From a virus, in IMG/VR virus record IMGVR_UViG_3300036771_000090, positions 13,805 to 77,804 of that record: a stretch of 64,000 bases of DNA; one strand, written 5' to 3'. A program made the position numbers and the translations under genes. Positions 3,387 through 53,756 of this stretch are shown here, in pieces (position 1 is the first letter of the stretch; every line of letters begins with the position of its first letter). The notes beneath the pieces are model-generated. The model was not told where the DNA came from, made no database searches, and saw only the letters and a program-made list of their open reading frames with translations.

Positions 3387-4802
3387 ATGACGACGGACGC
3401 ACAGCGCGTGGCCGCCGGAGCGGCGCGGCACCTGGCGCGCGGCATGGCCTCCACGCGCTGGCGTCCACTCCCCCACCAGATTCCGCCGGCGGAGCGGTTC
3501 TACGGCTGGTTGATACTGGCCGGACGCGGCGCCGGCAAGACGGACGCGTGCGCGGAGTACATGGTCCAGCACGTCAAGGGACCGCCGTGTCTGCCCGGTC
3601 CCACTCCGCACTGGATGGCGATCATCGCCCCGACGCTGGGTGACGCGGCCACGTCCTGCTACTCCGGTCCGTCGGGGATACGCGCGCACGACCCTTCCGC
3701 GCAGATGGTCACCGTCAAGGGGGGCACCATCGTGCGCTGGCCCAACGGGTCGGAGGCGAAACTGTTCGGCGCGCACACGGAGGAGGAGACGGACCGGCTC
3801 CGCTCCGGCGGCAACCGGTGCCTGGCCTGGCTGGAGGAGCTGGCCGCCTGGCGTTACCTGGATGACGCCTGGGCACAGATGCGCTTCGGTCTGCGCGTCG
3901 GGCCGCATCCGCACTGGATCGGCTCCACCACTCCGAAGACCCGGCCGCTGATCAAGCGCTTCCACGCCGGGCAGGTGCCGAACGTCGTGGTCACGCGGGG
4001 CTCGATGTACGACAACCCCCACCTGGCCCAGGAAGTCCGCGACGCGCTGGAGGAGGAGTACGCCGGCACCCCGATGGGCCGCCAGGAACTGCTGGGTCTG
4101 CTGATCGAAGAGGATGAGAACGCGCTGTGGACCCATGCCGCCATCAACGCGACCCGGGTCCGGCCGTCGGATCTTCCCGACCTGGGCCGCATCTCGGTGG
4201 GGGTGGACCCGTCCGGCGGCGCCGGGGAGCAGGGCATCATCGTGGCCGGCAAGTCGAAGCTGGCGCTTCCTCCGGTGCGGATGCCGGACCTCCCGGAACT
4301 GGCCGATGCGCCGGCCCAGGTGATGACGCCGCGCCACCGCGGCTTCGTGCTCGATGACCGTACCGTCCACCTGAAGCCGGAAGGCTGGGGGCAGCGCGCG
4401 GTACAGGCGGCCATCGACTGGGAAGCGGATGAGATCTTCGTGGAGGTGAACTACGGCGGGGACATGTGCGTGTCCACGATCGCCTCCGCCATGGAGGCGG
4501 CCGGCGTGGCGATCCCCATCCGCAAGGTGCGCGCCACACGTGGCAAGGCGATCCGCGCGCAGCCGGTCAGCGCACTGAACTACCAGGGTGCGTGGAGCCA
4601 TGCCGGGACCTTCGAAGCGCTGGAGGACCAGATGACGACCTGGTACCCGGAGCTGGACTGGTCCCCCGACCGTCTGGACGGCTCCGTGTGGAACGCGCAC
4701 GGGCTGAAACTGGTCCGTGCGCAGGTCAGGGGCAAGGGCTCTTTTGGTGGTTCAATGGGACAAAAGCAAATGCCGATGCCAGGAAGATCCCACCTGCCAT
4801 GA
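3387..4802 (+). CDS. Terminase large subunit
   Basis: Walker A GRGAGKT, Walker B WLEE, STTPK, nuclease motifs VGVDP and SPDRLD. Confidence 0.93.
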   Translation: MTTDAQRVAAGAARHLARGMASTRWRPLPHQIPPAERFYGWLILAGRGAGKTDACAEYMVQHVKGPPCLPGPTPHWMAIIAPTLGDAATSCYSGPSGIRAHDPSAQMVTVKGGTIVRWPNGSEAKLFGAHTEEETDRLRSGGNRCLAWLEELAAWRYLDDAWAQMRFGLRVGPHPHWIGSTTPKTRPLIKRFHAGQVPNVVVTRGSMYDNPHLAQEVRDALEEEYAGTPMGRQELLGLLIEEDENALWTHAAINATRVRPSDLPDLGRISVGVDPSGGAGEQGIIVAGKSKLALPPVRMPDLPELADAPAQVMTPRHRGFVLDDRTVHLKPEGWGQRAVQAAIDWEADEIFVEVNYGGDMCVSTIASAMEAAGVAIPIRKVRATRGKAIRAQPVSALNYQGAWSHAGTFEALEDQMTTWYPELDWSPDRLDGSVWNAHGLKLVRAQVRGKGSFGGSMGQKQMPMPGRSHLP

Positions 4803-4972
4803 TCGCTATCCCCGTAACCGTCCTGTTAGCCCTGGTCCTGGCCGCGCTGGTCTTCGAGCGTGGCCGCTTCACGGTGATCATTGCCGTACTGTCCGTCGTC
4901 ATCGGCCTTCTGCTGGCCCAGACCGCCGTTGGCCGCTTCATGTCCGACGTGCTCCACACCTTCGGGCTCTGA
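4799..4972 (+). CDS. Small two-TM membrane protein containing a TTA codon
   Basis: MIAIPVTVLLALVLAALV...IIAVLSVVIGLLLAQT; in-frame TTA at 4826-4828. Confidence 0.65.
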   Translation: MIAIPVTVLLALVLAALVFERGRFTVIIAVLSVVIGLLLAQTAVGRFMSDVLHTFGL

Positions 4973-5023
4973 CGCGCGGTATCTTCCTTTTGTGGGACCA
5001 GTCGAACAAAAGGAAGAGGCGTC

Positions 5024-5443
5024 ATGACCACACCCAGAAGGGTGACTGCCGATCCGGCGGCCACCGCCAGCGCAGTCCTGATCTTCGGCCGGGAGCCGGC
5101 GCTGTTCTTCGCCGTGCTCAGCTCCGTACTCGGGACCGTGGTGGCCACCGGAGCCACCGGGCTCACCACCGACCAGGCCGGCACCATCACCGCGGCAGCA
5201 TCCGCCGTGTTCGCCGCGATCACCGCGCTGTTCACCCGGCCGGTGGCGCCGGCCGCGTTCACCGGCGCCTTCGCGGCCGTCGTCACCGTACTGGCCGCGT
5301 TCCACTTCAACCTCTCCCCGGAGCTGGTCGGAGCGGGCAACGGATTCATCACGGCGGTACTGCTGTTCGCCACCCGCGGGCACGTCTCCCCGACCACCGT
5401 CCGGGGCGAAGTCGTCCGCCCGAAGGCACTGCACGGAGCCTGA
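5024..5443 (+). CDS. Four-TM membrane protein, holin-like
   Basis: IFGREPALF N-terminus, hydrophobic helices, RGHVSP C-terminus. Confidence 0.65.
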   Translation: MTTPRRVTADPAATASAVLIFGREPALFFAVLSSVLGTVVATGATGLTTDQAGTITAAASAVFAAITALFTRPVAPAAFTGAFAAVVTVLAAFHFNLSPELVGAGNGFITAVLLFATRGHVSPTTVRGEVVRPKALHGA

Positions 5444-7347: not shown

Positions 7348-7656
7348 GTGAACAGACTGTTGTTGATCGTTAAAGCTGCTGCACCCGCGGCCGATCCGGT
7401 CACGAACACACTGATCCAGTACGGCGCCATCGGGGTCATCGCCACGATGGCGCTTGCTGCTGTCCGGGTACTTTTCGGCCGGATGGCTGCCGCGCTGGAC
7501 CGGGAGACAGCACGTGCGGACCGGCTGGAAGAAGAACTGCGGCGGCTGAACGAGACGATCCGCACGGAGTACACCGCTACGATTGCCCGGACCACACAGG
7601 CTGTAGCAGACGCGAATCGAGCGGTAGCCGACATGGCCGCGCGCCGCAGGAGTTGA
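7348..7656 (+). CDS. Membrane-anchored coiled-coil protein (lysis-accessory-like)
   Basis: QYGAIGVIATMAL TM followed by RETARADRLEEELRRLN. Confidence 0.6.
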   Translation: MNRLLLIVKAAAPAADPVTNTLIQYGAIGVIATMALAAVRVLFGRMAAALDRETARADRLEEELRRLNETIRTEYTATIARTTQAVADANRAVADMAARRRS

Positions 7657-49221: not shown

Positions 49222-49372
49222 TGTCTGACGCGGGTTGTGACGGATCGGGAGAGTGTCTTAGGTCGGAGCCGGTGTCAGCGGTCTGACAGGCGTTTCTGAC
49301 AGCCTTCTGACAAGGGCTGACACCGGCTCTGACATGCGGTTCTGACAGGTACTGACACCGGCTCTGACAGGG
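49222..49372. repeat. clt: clt-like locus (TraB recognition repeats)
   Basis: Eight direct CTGACA at 49283, 49296, 49307, 49317, 49329, 49342, 49352, 49364 plus an inverted copy at 49273, immediately downstream of traB. Confidence 0.8.
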
Positions 49373-49375
49373 TCT

Positions 49376-51424
49376 TCAGTTGGCCCGGTGGCCGTTTCTG
49401 ATACGGGGGCGGACGACGTACGGGGGCTTGCCGTTGCTGGTCTCCAGGCGGCCGGCTTCGGTGAGGCGCTTCAGCTCCGCGTACACCCACTGCCGGGTCC
49501 GGCCGGTGATGCCCGGAAGCTCCGACAGTGCTTCGAAGGTGATTTCCGCGGCGCCGCCTGCCTCCAGTTCATCGATCTTGGCTTCCAGGGCCGCGCGTGC
49601 GTCCGCGGTGGACATCCGGCCGCCCGCGGGCTCCGGACGGAGGCTGAAGGACCCGGCAAATCCGGGGTCCGGGATGGGTTCGGTCACGTCGATCAGGGCT
49701 CCGTCTTCGTCGGGGACCGCGGTCAGGTCCAGCGCCTGCTCCCGGTCGTTGTCGGTTTCGCCGTACCAGTTCACCGGGTCTTCGTCCGGTGCCGGGACGT
49801 CCAGGGGGACCGGGGGCAGACCGGCGGTCAGCTTCGAGTCCGGCACCTGGATGCCGGCCCCCAGGCACATGGCCGTTCCGGGGTCCAGAACGGCCCAGAA
49901 GGGCCGGCTGGCGTCCAGTTCGGCACGCTTCTGGGTCCTGGTCAGCCGCAGTGCACGGCCTTCCACCGCCCACAGCGTCCGGTCGGTCCCGATCGACTCC
50001 GCGTAGTGCTTGCCGGGGAAGTCGGCACCCCACTTGGTGGGGTCTGCTCCGGCTTCCCGGGTGGTCGCGGACAGGGTGAACTTGGCGTCGTAGTCCTCCC
50101 GGCAGCCGAAGGCGAGTGCGTTGGCGAACAGACCGCGGGTCCGGCGGTCGATGTTCTGGTTGTGGGCGGTCTGCATGGACGCGAAGATGGCGAAGCCGAC
50201 CGACCGGGCCGTCCTGACAGCGGTGTCAAAGTCGTCGTCACTGCTGCTCAGGACGGTTGCCGCCTCTTCGATGTCGATCATCACGAAGGGGATTCCGTGC
50301 AGCGTCCAGCATTCGGGTTCCCACTGCCCGTAGCCCACCGTTCCGTCGGAGCGCGGCAGCGTTCCCAGCCGCTCCGCCCGGTACCGGATGGCGTCCGGCA
50401 GGTTCTTGATCAGGCGCATGACCTGGGCCGGTCCCTTGGCCGCAATGGACAGCGTGTCCGCGATCTCCCCAAAACTCTGTTCGAACTTGTCGGGGTCCCC
50501 GACCACCGCGCAGAAGTCGATCCGGCTGCGGCCGTCGATGATGATCGTCTTCACACCTTCGGTCTTGCCGGAGTTCGGCACGCCTGTGACCAGCGTGTGT
50601 CCCGAAGGACGGCCGCTTTCGTCGTCGCCTCCCATCCAGATGGCCATGTCCGATCCGTCCCGCCGGCCGCCGTAGACCAGCGGTCCCGCGGCCACCGACT
50701 GGCCCGGCCGGGAAGGGCCGTTCCAGAGCATGACCGCGTTCGCGTCCTCCTCCGGCTCGAAGGCCAGGGTGACCTGGTCACCACGGCCCCTGACACCTGT
50801 CACGGTCACTTCGTTGGGGTCCATACCGACCGCGGAGGCGATGTGCGCACGGGCCGCGGTGACGTCTTCCACGGTGCTGTCACCCGGTTTGAGCTGGACT
50901 TTTGCCTCCACCCGGTTGCCTGACTCCTTGACCTTCTTCGTCCGGGCACCGGCCAGCGCTGACACCCGCTGGAACAGCGGGTCCTTGTGGCCTTCGGCCT
51001 TGTCGGTGTCGTGGTGCGCGGACATCGCACCGTGCCGGAGGTTCCACGCCAGGGACAGAACGACCGTGCCGAAGGCCCAGACCTTCACCATCTCCGGGTT
51101 GAGCGGATCGGTGGCGCTGGCCAGCGTGAACCAGCCGGTCACGGCGCCGGTGAAGACCGTGGCGAGAGCCCTGGTCAGTTCGTGGCGCCGGGCCCAGGTG
51201 GCACGGACATAAAGGGTCAGACCGACCGATCCGGCGCCCATCAGCGCCACCATCGAGCCGTCCCCCTGGACTGCGATGTGGGTCACCAGCGCCGCCGGCA
51301 TCGCGGCGGCGCTGATGGACCACGGGACCATGTGCGGAAGCAGCCGGGAACCGGCCAGCTCTCCGACACCCAGACGCTTCGTTCGTACCGGTGACGTGCT
51401 CTTTCCCTTGCCGCTGCCGCTCAT
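49376..51424 (-). CDS. traB: Conjugative DNA translocase TraB (FtsK/SpoIIIE family)
   Basis: N-terminal TMs, Walker A GVPNSGKT, Walker B MIDIEEA, ARSVG, WGA.FPG, C-terminal wHTH GRTRQWVYAELKRL.EAG. Confidence 0.9.
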   Translation of the reverse strand: MSGSGKGKSTSPVRTKRLGVGELAGSRLLPHMVPWSISAAAMPAALVTHIAVQGDGSMVALMGAGSVGLTLYVRATWARRHELTRALATVFTGAVTGWFTLASATDPLNPEMVKVWAFGTVVLSLAWNLRHGAMSAHHDTDKAEGHKDPLFQRVSALAGARTKKVKESGNRVEAKVQLKPGDSTVEDVTAARAHIASAVGMDPNEVTVTGVRGRGDQVTLAFEPEEDANAVMLWNGPSRPGQSVAAGPLVYGGRRDGSDMAIWMGGDDESGRPSGHTLVTGVPNSGKTEGVKTIIIDGRSRIDFCAVVGDPDKFEQSFGEIADTLSIAAKGPAQVMRLIKNLPDAIRYRAERLGTLPRSDGTVGYGQWEPECWTLHGIPFVMIDIEEAATVLSSSDDDFDTAVRTARSVGFAIFASMQTAHNQNIDRRTRGLFANALAFGCREDYDAKFTLSATTREAGADPTKWGADFPGKHYAESIGTDRTLWAVEGRALRLTRTQKRAELDASRPFWAVLDPGTAMCLGAGIQVPDSKLTAGLPPVPLDVPAPDEDPVNWYGETDNDREQALDLTAVPDEDGALIDVTEPIPDPGFAGSFSLRPEPAGGRMSTADARAALEAKIDELEAGGAAEITFEALSELPGITGRTRQWVYAELKRLTEAGRLETSNGKPPYVVRPRIRNGHRAN

Positions 51425-51437
51425 GGCCCTACCTCCT

Positions 51438-52001
51438 TCAGGTCCGGATACCGAAGTGCTTGGTCTTCTTGCGGGGGACGCCGGCCAGTTGGTCCCCGAA
51501 CGCCTCTTCGAAGGTCTTCCAGACCCCCACGAACGCCACCGCGGCGTCCGCGGAGGCTTCCCCGGCCTTGTTCAGCCTCTTGGTCACGCGCCGCATCTTG
51601 AACACGGCCCCCAGGGACCTCACACCACGGTCCATGTCCCGGGCGCCGGCGGTCAGTTCGCCGCTCTGGAGATGGATCTCCACGGCAAGCCGGTGGAACA
51701 GTGCCCGGCCGGTCTCGCACAGCGCGTACAGGTCGTTCTGGTCTCCCAGCTCCTGGTCCACGAAGGTCCGGATCAGGGTGGCCAGATCCTTCTTCGCGCT
51801 GCTCCCCGCACCTGTCTGGCCACCGTTTCCGCTGGCAACGGGCATTCCGTCCATCCGAAGACCCCTCTCCCTTGCGTCCTGTTCGTTGGCCGGGCGGGTG
51901 CCGCGGGTGCTGTTCTCCCCCGGCTGCACCGGGGGCCGGGCCGGAGCCGGGCGCGCCGGGCGTGCCTGGGCAGGTCCCGGCAGGTTCCAGTCGTCGCTCA
52001 C
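51438..52001 (-). CDS. TraA-like plasmid transfer accessory protein
   Basis: Low-complexity N-terminus and helical C-terminus (...FEEAF...) directly upstream of traB; GTG with AGGAG RBS (alternative start 51854). Confidence 0.65.
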   Translation of the reverse strand: MSDDWNLPGPAQARPARPAPARPPVQPGENSTRGTRPANEQDARERGLRMDGMPVASGNGGQTGAGSSAKKDLATLIRTFVDQELGDQNDLYALCETGRALFHRLAVEIHLQSGELTAGARDMDRGVRSLGAVFKMRRVTKRLNKAGEASADAAVAFVGVWKTFEEAFGDQLAGVPRKKTKHFGIRT

Positions 52002-52017
52002 GGGCTGATCACTCCTC

Positions 52018-53079
52018 TCACGCACTCTGGTCCAGCGCGCGCCGGGCGCGCCGGATGCTGGTGTTGATCGTGTTGTCCTTCGTGTCCTGGCCGAACTTCT
52101 CCCGGACCAGAGCCTTGATCGTTGTGTTGTCCGTGTCCTCACCGCGGACCAGGATGTCCTGGATGAAGGAGGACACGGAGCCGTCCGCGGTCCGGCGGAC
52201 GGAAGGCAGGGGGACAGCGGCCGGGACAGCCAGGGACATGTCCCCGTCGGTGTCCTCCGGCTCCGGGCCGTCCATGTAGGGGTCGTGGACCGGAGTGGGG
52301 ACAATGTCCCCGTCGTGTCCCCGGGTCCGGTCCATCACCGTTGCGGTGTCCTGGGACACCCGGATGGTGTCCCGTCCGGCCGGCAGGACATCCGCGGTGT
52401 CCTTCAGGGCGTGTCCCGGGGACAGGAACGCCGTGTCCCATGACGGGACAAGCTCCGTGTCCAGGGTGTCCCCCGTGTCCTTGCTGTCCGGCAGGACAGC
52501 CGAAGTGTCCTTCAGGACACCGGCCGGGACACGGGACACGCTGTCCCCGGACGGGACAGCTCCCAGGACACCGGCGACACGGGACAGGGCGCGTGCGCCG
52601 GCCGGGGACGCGGCCAGGTGGAGCAGGTGTCCGAAGACCAGGGCCGGGATGCAGCTCACCACGACGGTCAGTGTCTGCTTGTACGTCCAGATGTCACCCG
52701 GCTGCCAGCCGCTGCCGTACAGGTGCGCGATGGGCTGTGCGGCCATCGCCAGCACGATGGAGACGATGGCGCCGCCTACGGCGGTCTTCTTGCCCGGGGC
52801 GCCCTTGCCGCGCTTGGTGGCCACCACGGCGGCTACACCGGCGTACATGGTCAGTACGGCCGGCATCCCCCAGGAGAGTTCCTTGTTCCAGCCGGCCAGG
52901 TGCGCCAGGTAGTGCTCACCGGGGGCACACATGATCAGTACGATCACAGCCACCGCGGGGCGGACCACGTTCTGGATGCCGTTAACCCAGGCCAGCTCTT
53001 CGTCCTTGTCCTTCACCCGGGAGCCGGGGACAGGGACAACCGTGGCCGTGTCCTTCGGGGACTTCTTCCACAGCTTCAT
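52018..53079 (-). CDS. SpdB-like membrane protein with repeat linker and putative C-terminal DNA-binding domain
   Basis: Four TMs (CAPGEHYLA.LAGW...VSCIPALVFGHLLHLAA), DT/VP-rich linker, helical C-terminus ...NTINTSIRRAR. Confidence 0.75.
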   Translation of the reverse strand: MKLWKKSPKDTATVVPVPGSRVKDKDEELAWVNGIQNVVRPAVAVIVLIMCAPGEHYLAHLAGWNKELSWGMPAVLTMYAGVAAVVATKRGKGAPGKKTAVGGAIVSIVLAMAAQPIAHLYGSGWQPGDIWTYKQTLTVVVSCIPALVFGHLLHLAASPAGARALSRVAGVLGAVPSGDSVSRVPAGVLKDTSAVLPDSKDTGDTLDTELVPSWDTAFLSPGHALKDTADVLPAGRDTIRVSQDTATVMDRTRGHDGDIVPTPVHDPYMDGPEPEDTDGDMSLAVPAAVPLPSVRRTADGSVSSFIQDILVRGEDTDNTTIKALVREKFGQDTKDNTINTSIRRARRALDQSA

Positions 53080-53099
53080 CGTGTCCTCCTCCGTCGGGA

Positions 53100-53155
53100 C
53101 AGGAATTAATTTAGTTGTCCCATTGAAAGGGACAGCGCCCGGACTGTCAAGGACA
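53100..53155 (-). promoter_or_regulatory. Promoter of the spd/tra operon embedded in GGACA boxes
   Basis: TTGACA (53151-53146)-17-TTCAAT with TGTCC boxes on both sides and in the spacer. Confidence 0.65.
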
Positions 53156-53193
53156 GATCCGGGCGCCGGAGGACAGGACACGGGACAGGGACA

Positions 53194-53532
53194 CTACGGA
53201 TGTCCCTGGGGGACATAGCGACGGGGACACTGTCCTGTCCACCGGCGTCCGTCGAAGAAGGACACCCAGTGTCCTCTGTCCCCGGTGTCCTGTCCTTCTG
53301 CGGTGAGCAGGACACCGCTGTCCCCCAGGACATCCGGGCTGTCCTGGGGGACAGCAGACAGGCAGGACATGGAGGCTGTCGCCTGGAGCAGCGCGCGGGA
53401 CAGTCCCCGGAACGCCTCCGTAAGGGAGAACATCGTCTCCGTTGCGCGGGCCCGGCGCTCCGGGGCGGTGAGCGCCAGTTCCTCCGCGATCCGGGACAGC
53501 TCCGCCAGCGGGGACGGGGACACGGCGGTCAC
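53194..53532 (-). CDS. Hypothetical protein (3' half runs through the GGACA array)
   Basis: GTGA-coupled start. Confidence 0.45.
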   Translation of the reverse strand: MTAVSPSPLAELSRIAEELALTAPERRARATETMFSLTEAFRGLSRALLQATASMSCLSAVPQDSPDVLGDSGVLLTAEGQDTGDRGHWVSFFDGRRWTGQCPRRYVPQGHP

Positions 53533-53756
53533 CGGTCCAGCTCCTTCACGGTGTCCTGCGGCAGAGCCGGAGACAGACGGTCCGATACGTCCACGGTCAG
53601 TTCCGCGGAGCGCAGCGTCCCACCGAAGGACGTGCTGACGCTGAAGCACTCCAGCCCCGTGGCGCCGGCCCGGCGCGCCTCCGCGCACAGGGACTCCATC
53701 CGCTCCAGCGTCAGCCCGCTCTTGTCCGTCTCACCGATCTTGACTGTAGCCGCCAT
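53529..53756 (-). CDS. Hypothetical protein
   Basis: Coupled ORF. Confidence 0.6.
   Translation of the reverse strand: MAATVKIGETDKSGLTLERMESLCAEARRAGATGLECFSVSTSFGGTLRSAELTVDVSDRLSPALPQDTVKELDR

Follow-up and report, generated by a model that had tools for sequence, protein, structure and literature searches.

Why a gene for a membrane protein should be written through with dozens of copies of one short DNA word, and which protein reads that word, are the questions raised by a locus in virus record IMGVR_UViG_3300036771_000090. The window (the whole stretch of DNA analyzed here) is 64 kb of the complete 77,804-bp record, which has direct terminal repeats (DTR). The virus is a Streptomyces phage that carries a plasmid-style DNA-transfer pump. 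Exact GGACA/TGTCC pentamers, termed boxes here, number 70 at positions 52074–53556, with 35 on each strand, and run through the gene for a 353 amino acid (aa) membrane protein, the intergenic DNA upstream of it and the adjoining open reading frame (ORF), orf112. The initial annotation had put the number at about 70 copies on both strands, which the exact count confirms. The array is strongly non-random and is selected as DNA. The favored reading of the comparisons given below is that the C-terminal domain of the membrane protein probably recognizes the boxes in its own gene.

Genes were called from a frame plot of G+C content at third codon positions (GC3) together with translations. The array and the genes that it crosses are laid out as follows; loci that carry homologous genes are numbered with the prefix L here and below.

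52018–53079, minus strand: gene for the 353-aa membrane protein (stop codon included), with GC3 of 0.82–0.93 throughout, a translation and 339 homologues.
53194–53532, minus strand: orf112, coupled by GTGA to the preceding ORF, with 19 boxes in its 3′ two thirds and a homologue only in L006.
52074–53556, both strands (35 boxes each): whole array of 70 R-GGACA-(C/G) boxes, the sole cluster of its kind in the 77.8-kb genome.
52074–52632: block A, 37 boxes, covering the codons of the linker and the C-terminal domain.
52633–53006: box-free gap of 374 bp over the part that codes for membrane helices; the same gap is found in homologous loci.
53007–53556: block B, 33 boxes, covering the codons of the N-terminal tail, the ribosome-binding site (RBS), a promoter-like site and most of orf112.

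By feature, 41 boxes are in the 353-codon gene, nine in the 117-bp intergenic DNA, 19 in orf112 and one in the next ORF. The remaining 62.5 kb of the window has 258 boxes, or 4.1 per kb, and the array is thus enriched about 11-fold over its own background. The observed total is never reached in dinucleotide-preserving shuffles of the window. The number expected in 1.5 kb is about three from base composition, in agreement with the earlier estimate, and about six from the empirical background. The disappearance of the motif over the part coding for transmembrane helices was also correctly noted, i.e. there are zero boxes at 52633–53006.

The conserved word is longer than the pentamer. The extended box is R-GGACA-(C/G), with a purine at position −1 in 65 of the 70 boxes versus 36% of boxes outside the array. 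GGACAC accounts for 31 of the 70 (44% contain GACAC). Neighboring boxes are irregularly spaced at distances of 5 to about 24 bp, of which 6, 9 and 12 form peaks, and show no fixed or preferred dyad. Tandem duplication is ruled out as the source of the array, as only scraps were found by Tandem Repeats Finder (TRF).

Within the 353-codon gene the boxes fall into four phase classes: xxG GAC Axx (20), xxT GTC Cxx (12), xTG TCC (6) and GGA CAx (3). The dipeptides that these produce are D-T/S, V-P/L, V/L/M-S and G-H. Permuting synonymous codons while keeping the protein unchanged gives 19.0 ± 2.2 boxes, with a maximum of 27 in 2000 permutations, against the 41 observed; permuting the order of codons gives 5.4 ± 2.2. 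Similarly, orf112 has 19 boxes compared with 8.0 ± 1.8 after synonymous permutation, and the intergenic DNA has nine where shuffling leads one to expect 0.27. Since the shuffles fall so far below the observed numbers, both codon choice and amino acid order have been bent toward the word. The two orientations, the four phase classes, the non-coding copies and the shuffles together exclude a peptide repeat, codon bias or base composition as the explanation. The claims that the boxes cross coding and non-coding DNA in different frames, and that selection acts on the DNA and not on the protein, therefore stand.

The 353-aa protein has 339 detectable homologues, which share a common membrane domain but have unalignable linkers and exchangeable C-terminal modules. 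In some of them the module is a recognized helix-turn-helix (HTH) domain of the MerR/excisionase type, and thus this C-terminal position is one that holds DNA-binding modules. Approximately 60 loci were fetched from phage, viral-contig, metagenome and genome collections, and each was searched for its most enriched hexamer, over the gene and the 300 bp preceding it, against 255 kb of pooled flanks. For comparison, 152 control windows drawn from the flanks have a median best log10 p of −3.7, with the 5th percentile at −7.5. The handful that fall below −7.5 are mostly other real repeat sets, including clt-like repeats and a tandem coding repeat in phage Attoomi.

Loci whose protein has a C-terminal domain of the window type are termed class 1. 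NGGACA arrays are present in all class-1 loci examined (~25 of ~25), with log10 p from −8 to −65; no homologue with this domain was found to lack an array. The layout is constant, i.e. the 300–750 bp upstream contain 15–45 boxes, the tail codons also have boxes, the membrane part has a gap, and the codons of the linker and the domain have 20–40, with all phases in use. Because the linkers cannot be aligned between loci, box density is kept while box positions turn over.

Relatives with other modules carry other words. Those with MerR-like or other HTH modules (L012–L019, L022, L009, L018 and L033) have 7–15 CGTCTCA/TGAGACG boxes within the gene itself, spread over three phases and using the rare codons TCA and TCT; one box lies just after the stop codon. 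Further relatives display TGAGCA, CGTTGC, CGCGCA or GTCCCA words. In phage Success (L001, NC_073472.1, positions 4594–5397), 11 of the 30 CTCTCA/TGAGAG words of the 57-kb genome are clustered within 0.8 kb at the homologous membrane gene gp8, either inside it or 34 bp upstream; gp8 adjoins an HTH gene and the integrase gene. Success is a cultured phage of S. lividans. A class with the tail ‘DPRC...STIRG’, which includes phage mu1/6, has no array. Embedded arrays are thus widespread in the family, but they are neither universal nor strictly one word per domain. The GGTCAC/GGCCAC enrichment beside the homologous gene of Attoomi (L003, 4255–4718) was ruled out as a box array and is an ordinary tandem coding repeat in gp46 with periods of 12–42.

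Searches of the locus against plasmids by blastn and tblastn (72,556 plasmid records in the tblastn set) gave no match, and a scan of genome contigs gave one locus only.

The membrane protein was modeled with AlphaFold2 from a 16-sequence alignment. Residues 1–29 form a K/R-rich disordered tail, and the remainder of the chain is divided into three parts.

52564–52992, minus strand: membrane domain, residues 30–172, with four long predicted helices and one short; invariant PGEH, H119 and GHLLH.
52180–52563, minus strand: disordered linker, residues 173–300 (~125 aa), with a predicted local distance difference test score (pLDDT) below 50; poorly conserved and not alignable among homologues.
52021–52179, minus strand: C-terminal three-helix domain, residues 301–353, with pLDDT of about 90; helices at residues 302–311, 318–329 and 335–352.

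The four long predicted helices of the membrane domain are at residues 30–61, 66–89, 97–122 and 130–157. The K/R-rich tail and the second loop suggest an N-in, C-in topology, which would place the C-terminal domain in the cytoplasm. The boxes occupy the DNA of the tail, the linker and the C-terminal domain and avoid that of the conserved membrane helices. The C-terminal domain model was repeated with a deeper alignment and again gave three confident helices, so that the structured C-terminal region of ~55 aa foreseen in the initial annotation is borne out by prediction. Helix 3 (KDNTINTSIRRARRAL) is proposed as the reading helix from the co-variation described below.

Database comparisons gave no significant match of this domain to a known family or fold. 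Foldseek against the Protein Data Bank (PDB) gives nothing at E ≤ 0.001, and a profile search against PDB sequences likewise gives nothing. By structural comparison (VIA-align) no Z exceeds 6.3, a value usual for three-helix arrangements, and the top matches are winged-helix, RecX and BEN domains together with unrelated three-helix bundles. Neighbors in the ESM Atlas are StbA-like, KfrA_N, HTH_32 and Lsr2-type domains with a TM-score of ~0.7 over 55 residues; these are leads only, as such scores prove nothing. A phmmer search of the 60-residue domain against 1.8 billion proteins gives nine matches, mostly full-length family members, plus two shorter proteins and one long repetitive one. The window protein does not match DUF2637 (Pfam PF10935) even at E 10, and its homologue gp8 of Success matches that family weakly (E 0.015, 15.6 bits versus a cut-off of 22.8). 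Pfam, PHROGs and NCBIfam have no family for the membrane protein, for orf112 or for the two 75-aa ORFs preceding it.

The invariant residues of the membrane domain are P-G-E-H at positions 53–56, H119 and G-H-L-L-H at positions 150–154. The four histidines and the glutamate are inside predicted membrane helices, which suggests a metal site or a channel lining.

Directly downstream of the membrane gene are the genes of the transfer pump.

51438–52001, minus strand: traA-like gene (NCBIfam plasmid_TraA, E 3e-10) with its own RBS.
49376–51424, minus strand: traB-like gene for an FtsK-type DNA translocase (NCBIfam plasmid_TraB, E 5e-117; PHROG 24831).
49273–49372, minus strand: clt-like array of eight direct TGTCAG(A) repeats and one inverted copy, directly after traB; equivalents are in L005, L007, L008 and L011.

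The traA-like gene starts 16 nt past the stop codon of the 353-codon gene, and thus the membrane gene, traA and traB look like a single operon. The order membrane gene-traA-traB is the same in all class-1 loci. The only proteins common to all of these loci are the membrane protein and TraB; TraA is missing in L010 and L020. TraB has no match in the phage collection, and phage Success is without it.

The array of each class-1 locus has its own preference at position −1, and this base co-varies across loci with helix 3 of the C-terminal domain.

Helix 3 NT[ILM][NH]T[SA][IV]RRA: −1 purine (75–90%); the window, L005, L006, L007, L036 and L039.
Helix 3 [DN][ST]x[RSY][KV]A: −1 C (58–82%); twelve loci.
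Helix 3 NSVWRS: −1 C or T; L046.
Helix 3 DSISRAIRRAF: −1 C, with the last box letter shifted toward G; L038.

The −1 preference is also present in the non-coding boxes upstream. The same preference does not follow TraB. The window and L008 have a near-identical TraB helix, GRTRQWVY, and the same TGTCAG clt-like repeats (at 7522–7643 of L008, downstream of traB), yet the −1 base of the array is a purine in the one and C in the other. The possibility that the array is a second clt for TraB was rejected, as the −1 base changes while the TraB helix and the clt-like repeats stay.

Locus L011 separates the parts of the system further. Its TraB helix is different and its repeats are TGTCACGG. Its membrane domain clusters on a tree with those of the MerR-type relatives (L016, L018 and L033 were compared) with support of 99/97, yet its C-terminal domain is of class 1 and CGGACA boxes flank the membrane-coding part on either side. 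This combination is evidence of a recombination between the two halves of the protein. It also indicates that the array follows the C-terminal domain and not the membrane domain or TraB.

The proposal of the initial annotation that the C-terminal domain binds its own gene is thus upheld as far as comparison goes, i.e. by the fold, the arrays in ~25 of ~25 loci, the co-variation at −1 and L011, with binding itself a prediction. A test for enriched pentamers that co-vary with the putative recognition helix among homologues had also been proposed there. Such co-variation is seen in class 1 for the −1 base and helix 3; in the other C-terminal classes the match between word and domain is not one-to-one. 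Recognition of the box by the protein's own C-terminal domain is considered probable from these sequence comparisons.

The boxes are also placed over the elements expected to control the gene.

53145–53150, minus strand: −35-like TTGACA with a box directly upstream; conserved in L005, L006 and L008.
53122–53127, minus strand: −10-like TTCAAT; the 17-nt spacer holds a box and another is directly downstream; weak, and missed by a consensus scan.
53104–53115, minus strand: AT-rich leader element ACTAAATTAATT, conserved as CTAAAT(T/C)AA in related loci.
53085–53092, minus strand: RBS GGAGGAGG with boxes on both sides.

Read along the minus strand, the intergenic DNA is TGTCC-TTGACA-(17 nt with TGTCC)-TTCAAT-g-GGACA-ACTAAATTAATT-cc-TGTCC-cgac-GGAGGAGG-ACAcg-ATG, in which the final GGACA box lies before the ATG and shares bases with the 3′ end of the RBS. 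L005 and L006 have the same arrangement, down to the places of the boxes, and L008 and L011 have a similar one. A promoter at 53150–53122 is likely. The earlier description of a TTGACA-17-TTCAAT promoter flanked and interrupted by boxes is accurate as to the site and the boxes, which touch every element, but its −10 is weak and the scan does not call it. Three lineages (the window, L005 and L006) share the placement of boxes over the −35, spacer, −10 and RBS, which fits autoregulation, as had been suggested.

All class-1 lineages (also L005, L006, L007, L008, L011 and L040) have an (A/T)CTAAAT(T/C)AA sequence in the stretch from the promoter-like site to the RBS, where the surrounding DNA has ~68% GC. 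This AT-rich element could be a second −10, an unwinding element or the site of another factor.

The data can be assembled into the following proposal. The boxes would be the cognate sites of the cytoplasmic C-terminal three-helix domain that is encoded by the same DNA. Since there is no fixed dyad spacing, each domain may read one NGGACA hexamer as a single unit. Because the linker of ~125 residues is flexible and joined to a four-helix anchor, many copies could grip the 1.5-kb carpet of ~70 boxes at once, and such a multivalent grip would fix one place of the genome to the membrane. Boxes occupied over the −35, spacer, −10 and RBS would block initiation as the protein accumulates, and this shut-off would set the dose of the co-transcribed traA-traB. 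The tether would set the genome beside the TraB pump, and TraB would engage its own clt-like repeats 3 kb away and move DNA between hyphal compartments. The tether could also hold in place a genome without an integrase or ParAB. Sites inside the gene would favor action in cis, because an expressed membrane-protein gene is drawn to the membrane.

The complete 77,804-bp genome shows no match to a tyrosine or serine integrase, and none to ParA (AAA_31) or ParB_N, the two partition models from Pfam that were tried.

Taken whole, i.e. as a self-encoded operator and a membrane tether for the phage genome, this proposal is judged on balance to be somewhat probable. Its parts are not of equal strength. 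The protein's own C-terminal domain as reader, together with autoregulation, is the favored part, whereas membrane tethering and a role in spread or maintenance form a well-motivated hypothesis that, taken alone, is held less firmly than the whole. A bolder version would have the array act as a self-encoded membrane kinetochore, in which the genome is fastened to the hyphal membrane or cross-walls, passes through TraB without virions and is inherited without ParAB. It would then be a new kind of DNA-positioning system, in which many Streptomyces phages and elements have exchangeable domains and matching words. This version is speculative and is considered rather unlikely.

Several observations weigh against recognition by the protein's own domain or against the proposal as a whole. 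On the membrane-domain tree, one or two origins may be enough to account for the purine type, and thus the number of independent events is small. Relatives share domain and word by descent, and as the boxes and the domain are in part the same DNA, some co-inheritance is automatic. The CGTCTCA boxes accompany at least two different HTH types (the MerR-type lineages and the genome-borne L033), so that another reader is possible there. The ‘DPRC...STIRG’ class does without an array, which means that the array is not needed for the core function of the family. Since the C-terminal domain has no significant sequence or fold match, its designation as DNA-binding is based on position, shape and co-variation. 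The −10-like hexamer does not have an A at position 2. In addition, the mRNA of block A (52070–52640, minus strand) folds unusually well, with z = −6.2 compared with shuffles.

Other explanations take up some of these points. The array may be an operator only, i.e. an oversized one through which the membrane protein or another repressor restrains a potentially lethal traB operon, with tethering of DNA irrelevant and the membrane anchor serving some other purpose. Streptomyces plasmids hold down a potentially lethal traB by kil/kor pairs, and the usual traB repressor of plasmids is a GntR-type TraR/KorA. No such repressor was found in the complete phage genome and there is no room for another strong promoter before traA and traB, which together with the conserved box contacts at the −35, spacer, −10 and RBS suits this explanation. 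However, a few sites suffice for a promoter, while 50–100 boxes reach over 1 kb into the codons on either side of the membrane part, at a cost to protein sequence, and relatives without a traB operon also have arrays. An operator alone is thus unlikely. A different reader is slightly less likely again. This could be TraB or TraA, with the array as a second cis-acting transfer site, or a host factor such as WhiA. Apart from the membrane protein, TraB alone occurs throughout class 1, and the clt-like TGTCAG shares TGTC with the box. The core site reported for WhiA is GACAC, and 31 of the 70 boxes are GGACAC. TraB is countered by the −1 base, which differs between loci with near-identical TraB helices and identical clt-like repeats, and TraA by its absence from L010 and L020. 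A host factor would not be expected to track helix 3 of a phage protein; a WhiA sponge is unlikely for this reason and because GACAC is in only 44% of the boxes.

The notion that the array is a replication origin, with the boxes as iterons, the AT-rich element as the unwinding site and the membrane protein or another initiator assembling on them, is improbable. One cluster is present per genome, the AT-rich element within it is conserved, and a weak minimum of cumulative GC skew is near 54 kb; iterons inside an initiator gene also have a parallel in gene O of phage lambda. On the other hand the AT-rich element is only ~12 bp, the protein is unlike any initiator family in Pfam, PHROGs and NCBIfam, 70 irregular 6-bp boxes do not resemble known iteron sets, and phage skew mostly follows transcription. 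If the function were at the level of RNA or single strands, the balance of GGACA and TGTCC could make a forest of mRNA hairpins that controls translation or stability, and the folding of block A noted above would be accounted for. The homologous arrays, however, are strongly biased toward one orientation (23:5 in L010, 50:22 in L011 and 48:28 in L007), so that pairing is not the property that is conserved, and boxes extend upstream of the promoter-like site. An Rfam scan gave no family over threshold and only sub-threshold hairpin-like miRNA matches. This explanation is very improbable. Least credible is that the array has no function and is a by-product of a peptide rich in D-T and V-P or of local mutation bias. 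The residues D, T, V, P and S are indeed abundant in the linker, but the two orientations, several phases and non-coding copies, the shortfall of the synonymous shuffles and the density conserved in ~25 loci with unalignable linkers all speak against it.

The self-reading membrane protein proposed here may be compared with known systems, which it resembles in part but of which it is not a member. The closest is SpdA2 of pIJ101 and other Streptomyces plasmids, which binds 12-bp sps palindromes inside or just upstream of its own gene and affects segregational stability (PMC4170104; Thoma et al. 2014). As in the phage, this is a protein of a Streptomyces element with short sites in or near its own gene, and the sites shape the protein sequence (SRDD/E in SpdA). 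The initial annotation had suggested that a binding array encoded in the protein's own gene may be undescribed, and SpdA2/sps is a precedent for it in Streptomyces elements (PMC4170104). Unlike the phage protein, SpdA is small and soluble, has an N-terminal DNA-binding region and uses 1–3 copies of a conserved 12-bp palindrome; the phage system has a multi-pass membrane protein, a C-terminal domain and ~70 hexamers in both orientations, with lineage-specific words. The sps palindrome CGTCACGTGACG is not present in or near the region at ≤2 mismatches, nor anywhere in the window.

SpdB2 of pSVH1 is a four-helix integral membrane protein of the tra/spd region that binds double-stranded DNA non-specifically, forms oligomers and pores and contacts TraB (PMC4447253; Thoma et al. 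2015). Putative homologues on some actinophages have been suggested to help the spread of phage DNA (PMC4447253). The phage protein likewise has four predicted membrane helices and a gene beside traA-traB, but no site array has been described for SpdB2, whose DNA binding is reported as non-specific. The label ‘spdB-like’ given to the gene in the initial annotation fits in position and architecture only. There is no homology to any plasmid record in the tblastn search described above, and the family profile compared with pIJ101 SpdB gives a probability of 0.1%.

The clt sites of TraB, also termed TraB recognition sequences (TRS), are short repeats that serve a membrane-bound DNA handler. A single helix in its small C-terminal domain recognizes them, and the word differs from element to element (Vogelmann et al. 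2011, as cited in PMC3583192). They consist of 4–9 direct repeats of 7–9 bp just after traB. The GGACA array by contrast is about ten times larger, has boxes in both orientations, is 0.6–2 kb upstream of traB and is not tied to the TraB helix.

In the omega heptads of pSM19035, the ParG tetramer boxes of TP228, ParR/parC of R1 and StbA/stbDR of R388, short boxes overlap the promoter of their own operon and serve both autoregulation and DNA positioning. The phage array is similar to these centromere arrays in its many short boxes, which in some of the systems are in either orientation, and in its location over the promoter of its own operon. The centromere proteins, however, are soluble, have ~7–12 non-coding boxes and mostly work with a ParA or ParM motor. 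The phage has no ParA match, its reader would itself be the membrane anchor, and its array runs through coding DNA.

Proteins that bring particular DNA to the envelope by coupling a DNA-binding domain to an anchor at the membrane or pole include p16.7 of phi29, RacA/ram of Bacillus with DivIVA and Noc with its Noc-binding sites (NBS). These differ from the phage case in that p16.7 binds without sequence preference, and the sites of RacA and Noc are scattered over hundreds of kb with peripheral anchors. None of the three is known to have sites packed into its own gene. Phage lambda O, a soluble replication initiator, has four 19-bp iterons inside gene O and favors action in cis. The likeness is that the binding repeats are inside the coding sequence of the protein itself, and the differences are in the number and length of the repeats, in solubility and in function. 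A full-text search of the literature for DUF2637, GGACA repeats and membrane-anchored phage DNA binders turned up no account of arrays of this kind.

Spd proteins have no assigned mechanism (PMC4447253). If the proposal is correct, it would supply the missing link between the DNA and the envelope for the TraB/Spd machinery in Streptomyces plasmids and phages, and would explain the persistence and hyphal spread of a tailed phage that has neither an integrase nor ParAB. It would be a literal case of the old idea of membrane-attached replicons. The system is tractable, as the domain of ~55 residues is expected to be soluble, the word is 6 bp and nature supplies variants in which one base and a few helix residues have changed. 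The cultured phage Success, which is grown on S. lividans, offers a weaker version. The case also shows how far selection at the DNA level can reshape disordered regions of a protein.

The genes around the array form a run on the minus strand, in the order two 75-codon ORFs, orf112, the 117-bp intergenic DNA, the 353-codon gene, traA, traB, the clt-like repeats and small membrane ORFs. The minimum of cumulative GC skew near 54 kb of the window is not accompanied by a change in gene orientation. The CTGACA/TGTCAGA repeats after traB are real and, as the initial annotation had stated, are different from the GGACA motif. They resemble a classical clt, e.g. that of pWTY27, which has four TGACACC repeats after its translocase gene (PMC3583192). 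The clt word goes with the recognition helix of TraB, i.e. GRTRQWVY occurs with TGTCAG(A) and GVSRGWMY with TGTCACGG.

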